Positions 11,611 to 23,936 of a stretch of 64,000 bases of DNA are shown here, in pieces. Source of the stretch: a virus. The notes below the pieces were generated by a model that ran no database searches, was not told the DNA's origin, and saw only the letters and a list, made by a program, of their open reading frames with translations. The translations under genes were made by a program, and so were the position numbers. How positions within the stretch are numbered: position 1 is the first letter of the stretch; each line of letters opens with the position of its first letter. The stretch is from IMG/VR virus record IMGVR_UViG_3300009008_000003, one strand, 5' to 3'.

Positions 11611-11737
11611 TGCGGGCGACTGGATTTGAACCAGCGTTCCTTGGTCACAGGAGTAGAGATCGTCTACCCGTTTATCCGTGCCTGATCAGAACACGACCCG
11701 TACGCAGAAAGGAGTACTCCTACTATACCACGCCCGC
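11611..11737 (-). ncRNA. tRNA-like RNA (Gly-like acceptor) with expanded anticodon arm
   Basis: Acceptor GCGGGCG/CGCCCGC, D and T arms intact; ~65-nt branched insert replaces the anticodon loop. Confidence 0.8.
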
Positions 11738-17851: not shown

Positions 17852-17964
17852 AGCCCGCAGCGAGACTCGAACTCGCAACCTAGGGAGTATACACCTCCGG
17901 CTGCGATGCATGGGTTGTGTACGTTAATAAGACTCCCCTGTTCTACCAATTGAACTATACGGGC
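17852..17964 (-). ncRNA. tRNA-like RNA (Phe/Lys-like body) with ~40-nt insert in the anticodon loop
   Basis: GCCCGUA/UGCGGGC, D and T arms canonical; GGGGAGU...ACUCCCU stem with inner GUACAC/GUGUAU helix. Confidence 0.85.
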
Positions 17965-17969
17965 AAAAG

Positions 17970-18143
17970 GGCAAACGACGAGATTCGAACTCGCACTTTT
18001 TAAGCGGTCTGTTACCCGCAGGGACCCGCATATGGGACTTAAATTCCTTAACCGCTTTCCTTCAGCTAAGACTTGCCACCTATAAGCTTTCTGCGAACGC
18101 ATAGCTTATTCTATTCACTCTGCCAATTTAAGTTACGTTTGCC
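17970..18143 (-). ncRNA. tRNA-like RNA with ~120-nt two-hairpin insert replacing the anticodon/variable arms
   Basis: (G)GCAAACG/CGUUUGC(C), D arm ACUU..GAGU, T arm GCGAG-UUCGAAU-CUCGU; inner stems AUAAGCU/AGCUUAU and AAGCGGU/ACCGCUU. Confidence 0.75.
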
Positions 18144-18147
18144 ATAA

Positions 18148-18266
18148 AAGGGACAGAAGGACTCGAACCCACATTCTCCAGAAAGCGGTACTCATACTAT
18201 AGACGGGCCCGCCCATGGTCAGCAGAGTCCTACCCTCCGGTGTTTTACCAATTAAACTACATCCCT
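18148..18266 (-). ncRNA. tRNA-like RNA (Trp-like body) with ~50-nt insert in the anticodon loop
   Basis: AGGGAUG/UGUCCCU, D arm GUUU..AAAC, CCGGA/UCUGG stem extended by GGUA/UACC, CUC/GAG and AUGGGC/GCCCGU helices. Confidence 0.8.
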
Positions 18267-18294
18267 GCGAATTGTAGCACGCAGCTACAATTCA

Positions 18295-18470
18295 TCAACC
18301 AGTGTGCTTTTACGCCAAAGACGGTAGGAAGACGCTCCTTACCCGCGGACCTCACTACGTCTTTTTCCTAGGAGGCTGCTTTTAACATACCGCTACATCA
18401 CAGAGTTGCTATGCATATGTGTGTCGTCACTCTTTAAATGTGGCTGCTTCTAAGCCAACATCCTGGTTGA
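18295..18470 (-). ncRNA. 23S rRNA L11/GTPase-associated-centre (H43-H44) mimic with ~113-nt insertion
   Basis: UCAACCAGGAUGUUGGCUUAGAAGCAGCCACAUUUAAAGAGU[insert]GCGUAAAAGCACACUGGUUGA, compared with bacterial 23S ~1051-1108. Confidence 0.85.
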
Positions 18471-18471
18471 T

Positions 18472-18843
18472 TTAATAATGACGTTTTCTGTGGCAGTTAG
18501 CACAAAGAAGAATACATTTATCTAATTCTTTTTTGATAGATTCTAGGCTTTTAGAAGTTTTACTTATAGTAAAATCCTTATCTCCTTTTATATGATGAAA
18601 ATCATATATTGCTTTATTTTTATCTCGGGTGCCGCAGTCTTGACATTTACCGCCAAGATATTCAACTGCCTGTGTTTTTATAAGTTTTCGTCTTTTGCTC
18701 CCATACTCTAAACGACATGTTTTACAATAAGAATCTAAATATTTCCATATTTGTCCATTTTTACCGCGTTGTTGTTGAGAATAGAAGGATGCACTGGGTT
18801 TTTTCTGCTTACATTTTTTGCAGGTTTTTTCTTTTTTAATCAT
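18472..18843 (-). CDS. HNH endonuclease
   Basis: CKKC..CKTC, AVEYLGGKCQDCG, YDFHH, ELDKCILLCANCHRKRH. Confidence 0.9.
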   Translation of the reverse strand: MIKKEKTCKKCKQKKPSASFYSQQQRGKNGQIWKYLDSYCKTCRLEYGSKRRKLIKTQAVEYLGGKCQDCGTRDKNKAIYDFHHIKGDKDFTISKTSKSLESIKKELDKCILLCANCHRKRHY

Positions 18844-18848
18844 ACATT

Positions 18849-18877
18849 AATATAGCACATTAATGAGTGATTGTCAA
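18849..18877 (-). promoter_or_regulatory. sigma70-like promoter (probably leaderless HNH mRNA)
   Basis: TTGACA-17 nt-TATATT, with ATG 6 nt downstream of the -10. Confidence 0.7.
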
Positions 18878-18885
18878 GCTTTGAA

Positions 18886-18962
18886 TCCGGCTGGAAGGAA
18901 TCGAACCTCCGAAATTTCCTGGTCCCAAACCAGGCGCCCTAACCTGACTAGGCTACAGCCGG
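18886..18962 (-). tRNA. tRNA-Pro(UGG)
   Basis: CCUGG-UUUGGGA-CCAGG. Confidence 0.92.
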
Positions 18963-19000
18963 AAAATACCCCTAACCTAAACGGTTAAGACTATTTTTAC

Positions 19001-19390
19001 TTATTCCACAATTTTTGCTTTAAGCTCTTCATAGGTGAGATTATGATATGAACGCTGGTGTGTCACAGGATCGACCACGACGAATACTATTTTATTTATT
19101 TTACATATTTCTTTTTTAGTGGTCATGTTACGAACCATACATTCGATGGTAATCGAGCTATTACCCACCTCGACGAGATCACATCCAATTTCGATAAGAT
19201 CGCCCTTACTTGCGGGTGACACAAAGTCTACTTCAGATATGTACTTAGTGACAATAGAGTTAATGCCTGTTTTTGACATTACCCACACAGCCGCTTCCTC
19301 GTCAAGCCAGCTTAATAACCGACCGCCGAATAGTGTTTCGTGACTATTCAAGTCACCTGGCTTAATTAAATGCACCGAACGATATTCCAT
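19001..19390 (-). CDS. acyl-CoA thioesterase (hotdog fold)
   Basis: PGDLNSHETLFGGRLLSWLDE, VDF.SP...GDLIE, VFVVVD. Confidence 0.9.
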   Translation of the reverse strand: MEYRSVHLIKPGDLNSHETLFGGRLLSWLDEEAAVWVMSKTGINSIVTKYISEVDFVSPASKGDLIEIGCDLVEVGNSSITIECMVRNMTTKKEICKINKIVFVVVDPVTHQRSYHNLTYEELKAKIVE

Positions 19391-20676
19391 TAATCCGTCC
19401 TTTCGCCTTCTTCGTGAACGCGTTTTAGTGTTGGGAATCTTAATGAGGGTTTACCTGTTTTCGCATCTTTACATTCTTCAAAATATTTAACCGTTATTTG
19501 TTTTCCAATAAGCTGCTCTGGGTGATAATAGTATTGTACACGTTGGTCATGAGACCAACCGGACCCTACCCCTACTTCGTTTTCTTTGTACATAATAATA
19601 GCCTTTGTCATACAAAGAATTTCTTCTTCGAGCCCAGATTGCTGGCTTATAATACGGAATGGCCCTGTTTCTACACTAACGACTTTAAATTCATCATCTT
19701 TAAATTTCTTTAGTTTAAGAAGTTCATCTGTTCTCTTACCTTTATAGGCAACATTTTTTCTGATCATGATGCCTTCCCAGCCAGACTCTTCGGCTTTATC
19801 CGTAAGCTCTTTAAGATGATTTTCATCTTTGATAAGCTCGTGATTAACTATTTTTATTTTTTTATTATTTAATACTTTTACCAACTTATCGTGCCGTTGA
19901 ACAAGAGTATCTGTAGATGCCGCGTTATCAAAATCCTCTGTACTTAACATATCGAATACCAGGAATTCTGGATTAGGGATAGTGTAATCTTTTTTACGAA
20001 CCAGTTTTACAATGGAAGAAAAATCTTCATCTCCATTTTCGTCAACCATGCAAAGTTCTCCATCTAAAACACAGTTTTTAAGCCCAAGCTCTTTTATCTC
20101 TTCAGCAAGTTTACCAAGAGTTGTAAAAGGTTTACCAGTACGAGAATAGAACAAAGTGTTTCCTCCAGCGTCTATTTTAGCTATACACCGTACTCCGTCC
20201 AGTTTGCGGGAAGCATACCACCCATTTTTGTAATCTACCTTTTTCTTATGTTCCTCATATACTTTAGCAAGAGTTACTTTAAACTCTTTAATAGTATTTG
20301 GCCATACCTGGTTAATTTGCTTAATACCTAATCTAACCTTTAGATTTTTATCTAATATCATGTGGACTATATCGCCATATCCGTTGCAGCTTGCACAATA
20401 ATCATTTATAGTGCGATGAGCTTCATGACCACTTAATCTGCCACTTGCTAAATCATCCAACATTGCTGTTAGACTAACATAGCTATTTTCTGGGGTGTCT
20501 TTTATGTTAAGCTTTAGCAAATTTGCTGAAGTTATACCAAACTGTTTGTCTGGATTATGCGCGTACTCAAAGTATGTTTTTGTATCTGGATACTTAGCTA
20601 ATATTTTCTTCTTTTCGGTCATCGAATTAGTTGTATTTAATTCATCTAGACATGTTTTTAATAATTTTAAACTCAT
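19390..20676 (-). CDS. lig: ATP-dependent DNA ligase
   Basis: KLDGVRC (motif I), LDGEL, FLVFD, WEGIMIR, LLKLK, OB-fold VGSG, SLRFP. Confidence 0.95.
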   Translation of the reverse strand: MSLKLLKTCLDELNTTNSMTEKKKILAKYPDTKTYFEYAHNPDKQFGITSANLLKLNIKDTPENSYVSLTAMLDDLASGRLSGHEAHRTINDYCASCNGYGDIVHMILDKNLKVRLGIKQINQVWPNTIKEFKVTLAKVYEEHKKKVDYKNGWYASRKLDGVRCIAKIDAGGNTLFYSRTGKPFTTLGKLAEEIKELGLKNCVLDGELCMVDENGDEDFSSIVKLVRKKDYTIPNPEFLVFDMLSTEDFDNAASTDTLVQRHDKLVKVLNNKKIKIVNHELIKDENHLKELTDKAEESGWEGIMIRKNVAYKGKRTDELLKLKKFKDDEFKVVSVETGPFRIISQQSGLEEEILCMTKAIIMYKENEVGVGSGWSHDQRVQYYYHPEQLIGKQITVKYFEECKDAKTGKPSLRFPTLKRVHEEGERTD

Positions 20677-20886: not shown

Positions 20887-21558
20887 TTATACTCCTAACT
20901 TATTTATTTTTCTTGGGTCCCACTTGGTCATCCAGTGAACCCCATCTTCATTTATCTCTTTTACAAACTCTGGGCGAACTATTTTGCCCTTCATTTGTTT
21001 ACGATAGTTCTTGACAACTATCCCTTCGCGCTCGTGATCTGTGCTGTAAGCAGATGGCCCTTCTACCAGGTCTTCTATCTCGGTAATAGAATCAACATAG
21101 CCCTCATAAAGCAAAGGCACCAGTTTAATTCCCAGTTCAAAACAGATTAGTTGTTTATCGTCCCTGTTTACAAATTTGCCCTCTTGGAAAATATCTATAC
21201 AGATAAACCAGTCAGGAAGATTATCATAGTATATATGATGAGTAGCCCACATAAATTCGCCATAGATAATTGTATTCTTTGGCATGTAATACGTCAGGGC
21301 TCCCCACCGCTCATTAGCCCACGCTTTCAATCGACCAAATTGTGGATGTTCTCCCTCGTCTACAAGTGAGCCGCGTTTTTGTAAACGAAAACCGTCTTTG
21401 GTAGCGATAATGCCAACGTTAGCACCATCTATTTTTTCTTCTACCGTTAAGTAACCGTTAAGAAGTTGTTTAACTTCTTTCTTGCTTAGCTTTCTTTTAC
21501 CTGAAACATTGTATTTATTTGTAGGTATTCGAAAAGTTTTTTCGTATTTTCTAAACAT
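20887..21558 (-). CDS. RNA ligase family nucleotidyltransferase (Rnl2-like)
   Basis: YEKTFRIP, EEKIDGAN (motif I), IYGEF, REGIVVK, KGKIVRPEF. Confidence 0.85.
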   Translation of the reverse strand: MFRKYEKTFRIPTNKYNVSGKRKLSKKEVKQLLNGYLTVEEKIDGANVGIIATKDGFRLQKRGSLVDEGEHPQFGRLKAWANERWGALTYYMPKNTIIYGEFMWATHHIYYDNLPDWFICIDIFQEGKFVNRDDKQLICFELGIKLVPLLYEGYVDSITEIEDLVEGPSAYSTDHEREGIVVKNYRKQMKGKIVRPEFVKEINEDGVHWMTKWDPRKINKLGV

Positions 21559-22261: not shown

Positions 22262-23005
22262 TCATCCTTTATTGATGAAATTGAAAATCTTGGAACCGAT
22301 TTTAACGTCTTGAGCGATGACTTGGTTGGCCTTTACTCGTGCTTTCTTGACGGCTCTGATAAGAGAGTCAATACGTCCTAGACGTTCAGATTTTTCTCCA
22401 GGAGTAAGTCTGGCAGAATTGTAAATCGTTTCGTAAGAACCGACTTGTTCTTCCTTTACAACAAGTTGTACCTGTGCAGGATGCTCCTTAGTTGCGGGAG
22501 CTAATTCAATCGGAACTTGTTTCTTAACTACACGAAAACGTACTTCAGGATCAGTTTTCATGAAGCCAGAACCGGCACCGGTGTCTTTTTTCCAGACTCG
22601 AGCGGGATCCAGTGTAGGAATCGCTTTGTACATGGCACGAATTTCCATGAGCTGGGTTTCCAGGGCCAGCAACGAGGTAGCAGAAAGCTCCACTTCATCG
22701 TTACCGATTTTGACAGCCGACTTAGCCGAGCCAGAACTATTAGTCATCTCTTTGGAAACGATAGCATCCACGCTTTTGGATACTTGCTTGGCTACAAAAG
22801 CGAGTTTATCGTCAACAGTTGTGACAATCGCTTTTTCGTCTTTGGGGATCTGTTCCCCGTCTTCATCCATAGGGCTATAAGTTTTCAGAACCCCGTCGAA
22901 ATGTTCGGAACGTTTGGTGAACGTTGTGATGCCCTCACCCAAAGCATTTGTTGCAGAAGATCTCAACGAACCTTCCACGGCTAGCAATTCATGTAATTTA
23001 CCCAC
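22262..23005 (-). CDS. conserved hypothetical protein
   Basis: 247-aa helical ORF (MGKLHELLAVEG...). Confidence 0.8.
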   Translation of the reverse strand: MGKLHELLAVEGSLRSSATNALGEGITTFTKRSEHFDGVLKTYSPMDEDGEQIPKDEKAIVTTVDDKLAFVAKQVSKSVDAIVSKEMTNSSGSAKSAVKIGNDEVELSATSLLALETQLMEIRAMYKAIPTLDPARVWKKDTGAGSGFMKTDPEVRFRVVKKQVPIELAPATKEHPAQVQLVVKEEQVGSYETIYNSARLTPGEKSERLGRIDSLIRAVKKARVKANQVIAQDVKIGSKIFNFINKG

Positions 23006-23453: not shown

Positions 23454-23475
23454 CAGTAAAATAATCTAAAACTAG

Positions 23476-23842
23476 TGGAGACGGCGGGAATTGAACCCGC
23501 GTCCATCAAAACCTTTAACCAAAGTCATTCACAGCTTAGTTAGTTTTTTACACTTTATTTAAAGACGCTAGTAACGCTTCACTAAACAACGCTCATTATC
23601 GTCTACTCCGAGTTGGTCTCCTCGGTTGTCACAGAGTGGATTTAAATTTGTATCGCCATTAAATCCCTATGGCTAGTCAGTTATTTTTACGCCACTATCA
23701 GTACCAACTAACAGGTCTGTAGTAGCGGGTAGCCCTCAGGCTGCCAAAGCGTAAGATTTATCATTTAAATTTTGGTAAGCCTATGACTAGGCTTATGCTG
23801 CACTTCGATCTCAAATAACGACGTCGAAACCAATTCGTCCCC
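23476..23842 (-). ncRNA. ssrA: tmRNA; tag (A)DKSYALAA at 23736-23762
   Basis: GGGGACGAAUUGGUUUCGAC...GGACGCGGGUUCAAUUCCCGCCGUCUCCA; G3:U70; ORF GAT AAA TCT TAC GCT TTG GCA GCC TGA. Confidence 0.95.
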
Positions 23843-23847
23843 ATAAA

Positions 23848-23936
23848 TTGCGCTGGATGGACTCGAACCACCATTTGCGGGCTCTTAGTAAGCTGGCCAG
23901 CTTTGTCCCGTGCGTTACCAACTTCGCCACAGCGCA
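23848..23936 (-). ncRNA. tRNA-like RNA with palindromic insert in the anticodon loop
   Basis: UGCGCUG/CAGCGCA, D and T arms intact; CGGG...CCCG encloses AAGCUGGCCAGCUU. Confidence 0.75.

Follow-up and report, generated by a model that had tools for sequence, protein, structure and literature searches.

A phage-specific family of structured RNAs copying the uL11/GTPase-associated centre of 23S rRNA, represented in the tRNA gene cluster of a marine phage

Why should a phage without ribosomal RNA (rRNA) carry a copy of one functional centre of the ribosome? This question is raised by a 64,000-nucleotide stretch of DNA (hereafter the window) from the IMG/VR virus record IMGVR_UViG_3300009008_000003, a marine phage. 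The minus strand of the window exhibits, inside a tRNA gene cluster, a putative non-coding RNA gene of 178 nt (position 18294 to 18471). This element corresponds to a self-closed copy of the tip of helix 42 and of helices 43 and 44 (H42, H43 and H44) of 23S rRNA (Escherichia coli positions 1048 to 1111, the numbering used throughout), split between positions 1090 and 1091. We find that it is a member of a large phage-specific family of structured RNAs, and we propose, with a probability that we put at roughly 0.55, that the RNA may be a stable, free-standing decoy of the uL11/GTPase-associated centre acting in trans. The element was noticed in an original prediction made from the letters alone. 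The minus-strand letters of 18295-18470 agree exactly with those quoted there, and the bacterial 23S sequence given with them is borne out by Salmonella LT2 23S rRNA (NR_076079.2: CAGCCAGGATGTTGGCTTAGAAGCAGCCATCATTTAAAGAAAGCGTAATAGCTCACTGGTCGAG). The element is free of overlapping ORFs of at least 50 aa, and the covariance model of the family (see below) finds one copy in the 139.8-kb virus record.

The copy is limited to the uL11/GTPase-associated domain and closed by its own stem, as originally described. The stem is formed by a 5' strand from the H42 tip (18463..18471, minus strand like all parts of the element; E. coli 1047-1055) and a 3' strand (18294..18302; 1104-1112), and amounts to 9 bp rather than the 8 bp first given when the pair A18471-U18294 is counted. 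The 5' half (18470-18429, 42 nt) is equivalent to 1048-1090 without U1078. It comprises the H43 hairpin (18438..18461; 1057-1081), which matches enterobacterial rRNA fully apart from the U1078 deletion and exposes the A1067 loop (18453-18445, A1067 at 18451), followed by the junction strand U1082-U1090 (UUAAAGAGU, 18429..18437), in which A1088 (18431) is the tertiary partner of U1060 (18458). A variable arm of 113 nt, the "insert" of the original prediction, occupies 18316..18428. According to the predicted fold and to the covariation in the family, it is closed by a GAC/GUC helix (18428-18426 with 18322-18320), and its sequence ends with a junction strand UUUG (18319-18316). The 3' half (18315-18295, 21 nt) is equivalent to 1091-1111 and includes the upper H44 hairpin with the 1095 loop (G1091-C1102; GCGUAAAAGCAC, 18304..18315; A1095 at 18311). 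Relative to Salmonella LT2 23S rRNA, there are four substitutions and one deletion in the 5' half, while three of the 21 positions differ in the 3' half. In addition to the missing U1078, the differences consist of A1089G, A1090U, U1097A, U1101A and three changes in the H42 stem. Since A1090U and U1101A change together, the 1090-1101 pair is kept.

How isolated is this element? It is no one-off, relatives being carried by more than 150 IMG/VR phage contigs. A pattern for the 3' junction matched at least 118 IMG/VR contigs, and an independent pattern confined to the 5' half matched 71, about half of them new. These search patterns fix some of the columns counted below, and the 5' and 3' patterns served as mutual controls. 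Among 185,579 prokaryote species genomes only 36 matches were obtained, mostly in contigs of metagenome-assembled genomes. The analysed set consists of 116 unique elements, 95 of which, having a 5' half of E. coli length, were used for the base counts. A covariance model built from 24 other members, with the window excluded, matches the whole element of the window (18294..18471) over the full model length (1-151) with a score of 91.6 bits (E-value = 2.9e-27), a resemblance far in excess of chance; by this model the window exhibits the H42 tip, H43 and H44 together with the invariant bases of the family. The same model gives about 80 bits to the phages CBB and GAP32 and 60.9 bits to a true 23S domain (locus L004), and retrieves nothing else.

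In a BLAST search against cultured phages, the jumbo phages CBB and GAP32 were found to carry the same split element between genes, in unannotated DNA, the break point being identical (AAAGAGU/G...CUUUG/GCGUAA) and the insert 182 nt long; the full length in CBB is about 245 nt. Carriers with complete cultured genomes are Pectobacterium phage CBB, Cronobacter phage GAP32, Serratia phage BF, Pseudomonas putida phage pf16, several phages of Erwinia and Xanthomonas, and Aeromonas phage 4_4572; the Pseudomonas phages Astolliot, UNO-G1W1 and Milchi possess the element as well. In three records the homologous stretch is covered by a CDS annotated as "hypothetical protein" (PQ464595, Erwinia phage Kaldavass; PP551948, UNO-G1W1; PQ464597, Milchi), probably a mis-annotation. 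A match in Paenibacillus phage Pd_22F was rejected from the family, being a genuine 23S gene in that record. Whatever the host, all members have in common G1089, the pair U1090-A1101, a G-C-closed arm and a UUUR strand, so that the family appears to be a single lineage rather than the product of repeated capture from hosts.

Could the element nevertheless be a piece of rRNA captured without a function, or the result of a chimeric assembly with host rRNA? The 5' half resembles rRNA so closely that rRNA contigs of unrelated organisms align on it at 90% likeness or more. From three seawater metatranscriptome runs belonging to the same study, nothing aligns but rRNA contigs of other organisms, over about 18428-18474. 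These contigs part from the window near the junction (about 18428-18436), continuing as real rRNA. The Rfam model of bacterial large subunit (LSU) rRNA (RF02541) likewise matches nothing of the element but its 5' half (24.5 bits, E-value = 8.7e-7; model positions 1096-1145), below its cut-off of 50 bits, and it finds no LSU rRNA elsewhere in the 139.8-kb record. There is therefore no rRNA operon, and the original prediction was right in denying a stray operon fragment. Neither a full-length LSU rRNA nor a continuous piece of one is present, and the element is flanked by an HNH ORF and tRNA-type genes. The split element also occupies syntenic intergenic sites of complete cultured phage genomes and recurs in the more than 150 independent contigs; compensatory changes and phage-specific invariant bases further speak against a fragment or a chimera. 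Given the family membership across phages and the covariance-model score, both explanations are ruled out for practical purposes, including the chimeric assembly that the original prediction had itself named as a danger. Over the element, no Rfam 15 family reaches its gathering score in the window or in 18 related loci, and a scan of the window region at E-values up to 10 returns no family either. No description of such an RNA was found in the searchable full-text literature. The novelty asserted in the original prediction stands with regard to Rfam 15 and that literature.

The folding energy of the whole element is unimpressive (z-score of only -1.95), so that the support for the fold comes from the comparison of relatives. 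In 25 aligned members, 94.5% of the cells are paired, versus 75.3% in shuffled alignments, and in 13 pairs both partners have changed in a compensatory manner. A covariation score of 0.513 was obtained, versus 0.135 after shuffling (none of 500 shuffles reaching the observed value) and at most 0.146 with slid partners. Ranked by mutual information, the highest pairs coincide exactly with those known from the centre. Among the 95 members, each of the H42-tip pairs 1048-1054/1105-1111 occurs with all four Watson-Crick types, while 1055:1104 is mostly G-C; pair 1058:1080 is found as UA (35), GC (28), AU (26) and CG (4), and pair 1082:1086 as UA (49), CG (25) and AU (14). The tertiary signature of the centre is kept with similar rigour. 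The pair U1060-A1088 is present in 95 of 95 members, and the base triples of G1071 with G1091-C1100 and of C1072 with C1092-G1099 in 94, the exception being an isosteric U with U-A. A1084, A1085 and G1087 are invariant, as are G1093, U1094 and A1098 (95/95), and A1095 is present in 93. The 1095 loop is stricter than A1067, the latter being A in 80% and G in 16% of the members against 98% for A1095. The covariation shows that the family fold is under selection. About 12 of the 116 members possess a second expansion, an extra hairpin right after 1076/1077 of H43 (e.g. L007, L059, L077, L067, L045, L073 and L093). U1078 is absent in CBB as well as in the window; this site in the 3' strand of H43 tolerates both insertion and deletion.

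Such a pattern of conservation bears on the protein ligand. All nucleotides that build the uL11-binding fold are invariant, and the relaxed position A1067 is one that matters for factors and thiopeptides, not for uL11. The RNA might accordingly be a sponge soaking up free or exchangeable host uL11, depriving ribosomes of a protein required by RelA and blunting ppGpp synthesis. The phage has no uL11 gene, and marine phages are thought to manipulate ppGpp by other means, such as MazG. We consider this possibility doubtful, since uL11 is as abundant as ribosomes and mostly ribosome-bound, the obligatory arm beside A1088 may hinder uL11, and the sarcin-ricin hairpins of some long members (see below) are left unexplained.

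What, then, is the 113-nt insert? When members were sampled regardless of the 3' side, nearly all had a junction of the form C-UUU-(G or A) and then GCGUA(A/G)NAGCAC, with A as the last base of the UUU(G/A) strand in about 22%. A G-C pair joins the two terminal bases of the arm (94 and 92 of 95, respectively), the next two pairs covary, and U1090 pairs with A1101 in 93 of the 95. These three features identify a three-way junction in every member. H44 of the family is composed of a lower stem, the arm, the UUUR strand and an upper stem carrying the 1095 loop. The window conforms to this arrangement (GAGU/GAC...GUC UUUG/GCGUAAAAGCAC), the corresponding frequencies in the family being 92-100%. 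The insert is thus a built-in variable arm of a three-way junction, and its location in H44, as originally given, can be specified as the 5' strand of that helix. No covariation was found between the UUUR strand and any position of the core.

An intron, the removal of which would leave a mini-domain of roughly 65 nt, had been hinted at by a U before the insert and a G at its end in the window, and the H44 region is among the rRNA sites with reported introns. Both bases have another role. The U is U1090, paired with A1101, and the G is the last base of UUU(G/A), replaced by A in about a fifth of the unbiased sample as stated above. Together with the covarying closing helix of the arm, the U1090-A1101 pairing speaks for a junction rather than for splice sites. 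The inserts range from 28 to about 370 nt and share no common core; neither the terminal G nor the ribozyme length of a group I intron is thus a feature of the family. The absence of a group I core, already noted, is confirmed, no Rfam intron family matching the window at E-values up to 10 (for RF00028, no trace of the catalytic core P3-P9), and no Rfam intron reaches its gathering score over the element in 18 members with inserts of 180-370 nt. As a positive control, a group I intron (Rfam, 70.1 bits) was recovered in the tRNA array of another carrier (L050, 2941-3164), outside the element. The intron explanation is therefore very improbable.

The sequence of the arm is far more variable than its root. 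In the window, the arm is predicted by energy folding to form three hairpins (about 18425-18384, 18379-18345 and 18343-18323), one more than the original prediction had drawn. A blastn-short search found no relative of this arm among the 116 unique members, and this three-hairpin fold is accordingly an energy prediction only. Loci related through the neighbouring DNA ligase were too distant to be used for a comparison of arms. In 24 of the 116 arms, a hairpin CACCCCG-(GNRA or UAAC)-YGGUAAGG lies 22 nt before the arm end (L011, L108, L044, L036, L061, L046, L114 and L019 among others), flanked by a covarying GGC/GCY helix; no counterpart of it was found in 23S rRNA (Paenibacillus). A GGUAAGG heptamer is present in the window arm, 28 nt before its end. 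We claim no homology with the CACCCCG hairpin, since the heptamer is predicted to be part of a different hairpin.

Three of the 116 members (L106, L028 and L022) contain a sarcin-ricin-type sequence (AGUACGAGAGGGAC and near variants), located about 220 nt into arms of 311-314 nt. In these members the centre is joined with a hairpin of the type that provides the other half of the factor-binding site. This raises the possibility that the RNA is a mimic of the factor-docking site, which with uL11 and perhaps stalk proteins would sequester or mis-activate a translational GTPase or RelA off the ribosome. Isolated oligonucleotides of the two domains reportedly bind EF-G, and bL12-like ORFs (Pfam Ribosomal_L12) occur in 8 of the 47 carrier genomes larger than 100 kb (G007, G008, G016-G019, G024 and G041), a proportion for which there is no control set to give a base rate; uL11 and uL10 occur in none of the 47. 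We hold such a docking mimic to be unlikely. No sarcin-ricin-type sequence was found in the arm of the window, and most members likewise have no such hairpin; the conservation of A1067 is not strict; titration would fail in view of the abundance of EF-G and EF-Tu; and the record of the window has no bL12 or GTPase gene.

The genomic setting provides a further indication. A tRNA or transfer-messenger RNA (tmRNA) gene lies within 300 nt of 60 of the 116 unique members, often only 2-12 nt away, and all 257 tRNAs within 1 kb of members are on the same strand. The window follows this rule, its element lying among tRNA-type genes of the same strand in a phage genome. Reading downstream along the minus strand, one meets tRNA-Pro (18885-18963), a promoter-like site, the HNH gene, the element, a 9-bp hairpin and three tRNA-shaped genes. 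The promoter-like site (TTGACA-17-TATATT, 18849..18877) matches the consensus at 11 of 12 positions and has an extended -10 TG; it is a consensus match only, the number of such sites in the region being no higher than in shuffled sequence. The 9-bp hairpin (18271..18291, minus strand) forms the spacer before the next tRNA-shaped gene; having no U-tract, it was not scored as a terminator. A scan revealed no terminator-like site between the HNH gene, the element and the tRNA-shaped genes, and co-transcription of the element with its neighbours from the promoter at 18877-18849 is plausible. A second promoter-like site with an extended -10 TG (TTGATG-16-TACAAT, 18271-18298, minus strand) overlaps the end of the element and the spacer hairpin; transcription from it would begin at about the first base of the next tRNA-shaped gene.

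The downstream genes, which the original prediction took for three cargo tRNAs, have the shape of tRNAs but lack a normal anticodon loop. Together with a fourth at a distance, they are located at 17852-17964, 17970-18145, 18148-18266 and 11611-11737 (minus strand; Rfam tRNA scores of 52.7, 21.8, 41 and 38.3 bits, respectively). Their acceptor, D and T arms are intact, 44-53 nt replace the anticodon loop, and ARAGORN calls none of them. The HNH endonuclease ORF (123 aa, 18472..18843, minus strand) ends with its stop codon directly before the element. It exhibits a weak Pfam HNH match (E-value = 0.0017, 18.9 bits for a cut-off of 21.4) and BLAST matches to annotated phage HNH genes. Its ATG is only 5 nt past the -10 box of the promoter-like site; either its mRNA is leaderless, or the promoter once served the RNA array and the HNH gene was inserted behind it. 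The original prediction had placed it in one apparent transcript with the RNA. It is probably an incidental mobile gene, as the tRNA cluster of T4 likewise holds a homing endonuclease gene, and no protein gene is conserved beside the members of the family. The largest cluster of proteins encoded within 3 kb is represented at 7 of the 116 loci. The same RNA-gene island of the window includes, on the minus strand, a tmRNA (23473-23842, tag DKSYALAA; Rfam 96.3 bits and ARAGORN) and an adjacent tRNA match (23848-23936). Other neighbours on that strand are a 4HBT thioesterase (19001-19390), an ATP-dependent DNA ligase (19390-20676), an Rnl-type RNA ligase (20887-21558) and a DUF7873 protein (22262-23005).

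So tight a placing among same-strand tRNA genes, with the element of the window standing between HNH and tRNA-shaped genes and no terminator between, would suit a cis-acting part of the tRNA-array transcript, either a module for processing or stability or a leader in the style of ribosomal-protein mRNAs. This is improbable, more so than the sponge or the docking mimic. There is no conserved downstream gene, the nearest 1 kb is free of tRNAs in about 40% of the members and the nearest 2.3 kb in CBB and GAP32, and no ribosomal-protein leader family of Rfam matches the element, which has no ribosomal-protein gene nearby. The complete tertiary fold and both loops are kept, which is more than a processing signal needs.

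From the sequence, the fold, the family membership, the restriction to phages and the tRNA-array context observed above, we infer that the RNA is expressed and processed, that it may bind uL11, and what its function as a whole could be. The uL11-binding domain of the ribosome touches EF-G, the EF-Tu ternary complex and the RelA-bound tRNA. In the decoy reading that we prefer, the RNA would most likely share a transcript with the adjacent tRNA-type genes, from which tRNA-processing enzymes would release it. The free RNA, probably loaded with host uL11, would then imitate the ribosomal site and be a rival of ribosomes for some partner recognising the centre. Its action must be in trans, since it has no sequence for entering the ribosome and the phage has no rRNA. 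The idea that it serves as a patch for cleaved host rRNA, one of the functions first suggested, is unlikely, as the RNA has nothing to dock into a ribosome. Its partner is probably host-encoded, in view of the lack of a conserved protein neighbour, the lack of uL11 and uL10 genes in the large carrier genomes, and the failure to find a gene for uL11, bL12, a translational GTPase or RelA/SpoT in the record of the window.

Three targets may be considered for such a decoy. We rank first an effector of the host or of a competitor that modifies or cuts this rRNA domain, the RNA being then an anti-defence decoy comparable to the neighbouring spare tRNAs; phage tRNA sets and RNA anti-CRISPRs are known to act as substitutes or decoys, and imitations of host RNAs are already turned against defence by phages. 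This ranking is based on the precedent of Tre23, a type VI secretion system (T6SS) toxin, on the setting among spare translation RNAs, and on the 1095 loop being stricter than A1067. Free uL11, the loss of which would blunt RelA and the stringent response, comes second, and a translational GTPase of low abundance third. Several facts weigh against the decoy. No described anti-phage defence targets H43/H44, Tre23 being a toxin used between bacteria; were the RNA a sponge, its targets uL11, EF-G or EF-Tu would be very abundant; the arm might block uL11; and the sarcin-ricin-type hairpin of three members fits a mimic of the factor-docking site better than a decoy of a single toxin. The universal three-way junction and the UUUR strand are left unexplained by a plain decoy, and none of the three target readings accounts for them. 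We tentatively mention, as a possibility of low probability, that the RNA with host uL11 and perhaps stalk proteins would constitute a ribosome-free "stalk-base" particle docking a translation factor or a ribosome-directed defence effector. If so, a functioning part of the ribosome's architecture would serve the phage as a weapon or a shield, and in the long relatives with the sarcin-ricin hairpin a single molecule would reconstitute the entire factor-binding site.

If the RNA is made and binds as its fold predicts, large phages of soil, gut, freshwater and sea possess, in portable form, a copy of a functional site that is among the most conserved of the ribosome. It would represent a new class among the phage tools aimed at host translation, beside tRNAs, tmRNA and ribosomal proteins, and would point either to a novel family of defence or competition effectors attacking the uL11 stalk base or to a new control of uL11, RelA or GTPases. 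The family is in addition a natural, covariation-rich data set on what the centre tolerates, namely an arm at 1090/1091, an expansion at about 1077/1078, the loss of U1078 and A1067G. The cultured carriers (CBB, GAP32, pf16 and others) make the question directly testable.

How does the RNA compare with known systems? Its model is the GTPase-associated centre of 23S rRNA, the 58-nt uL11/thiostrepton fragment (E. coli 1051-1108), to which the sequence of the window is near-identical, with the same helices, U1060-A1088, the base triples, 1082:1086 and the 1067 and 1095 loops. In contrast to the rRNA domain, the phage RNA is a free-standing gene with its own closing stem in a phage without an rRNA operon. 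It has an obligatory three-way junction at 1090/1091 with the UUUR strand and a variable arm, and its family has fixed G1089 and U1090-A1101 while relaxing A1067 to 80%. Imitation of rRNA sites is known from ribosomal-protein leaders, whereas a phage-borne RNA that stands free and copies a functional centre of the ribosome completely is not known. The rplJL leader, bound by L10(L12)4, imitates part of H42. Ribosomal-protein mRNA leaders mimicking rRNA binding sites (surveyed in PMC3616713) resemble the phage RNA as off-ribosome imitations of an rRNA protein site, in the case of rplJL of the same stalk-base region. The mimicry of these leaders is partial and exerted in cis on ribosomal-protein genes, while the phage RNA has the complete tertiary fold, is restricted to phages and lies among tRNA genes, away from any ribosomal-protein gene.

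Within phages, the rnaC and rnaD RNAs of T4 ("species 1 and 2") are similar in being unexplained stable RNAs inside a tRNA cluster, one that also holds a homing endonuclease gene (segB). They were rejected as relatives, the family model reaching at most 8.3 bits (E-value = 0.44) in the T4 tRNA region. H44 is ADP-ribosylated around 1095-1098 by the T6SS toxin Tre23, which is thus an effector aimed at exactly the hairpin that the phage RNA copies (PMC8661411). Tre23 differs in being an interbacterial weapon, not a known anti-phage system, and is likened to the phage RNA by the shared target only. Munishkin and Wool reportedly observed in 1997 that isolated thiostrepton-domain and sarcin-ricin oligonucleotides bind EF-G in vitro. 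Like the phage RNA, these synthetic pieces of a "ribosome in pieces" are isolated copies of the same domain, and they retain ligand binding off the ribosome; they were made in the laboratory, in contrast to the phage RNA, which forms a naturally occurring gene family and has an arm in addition.

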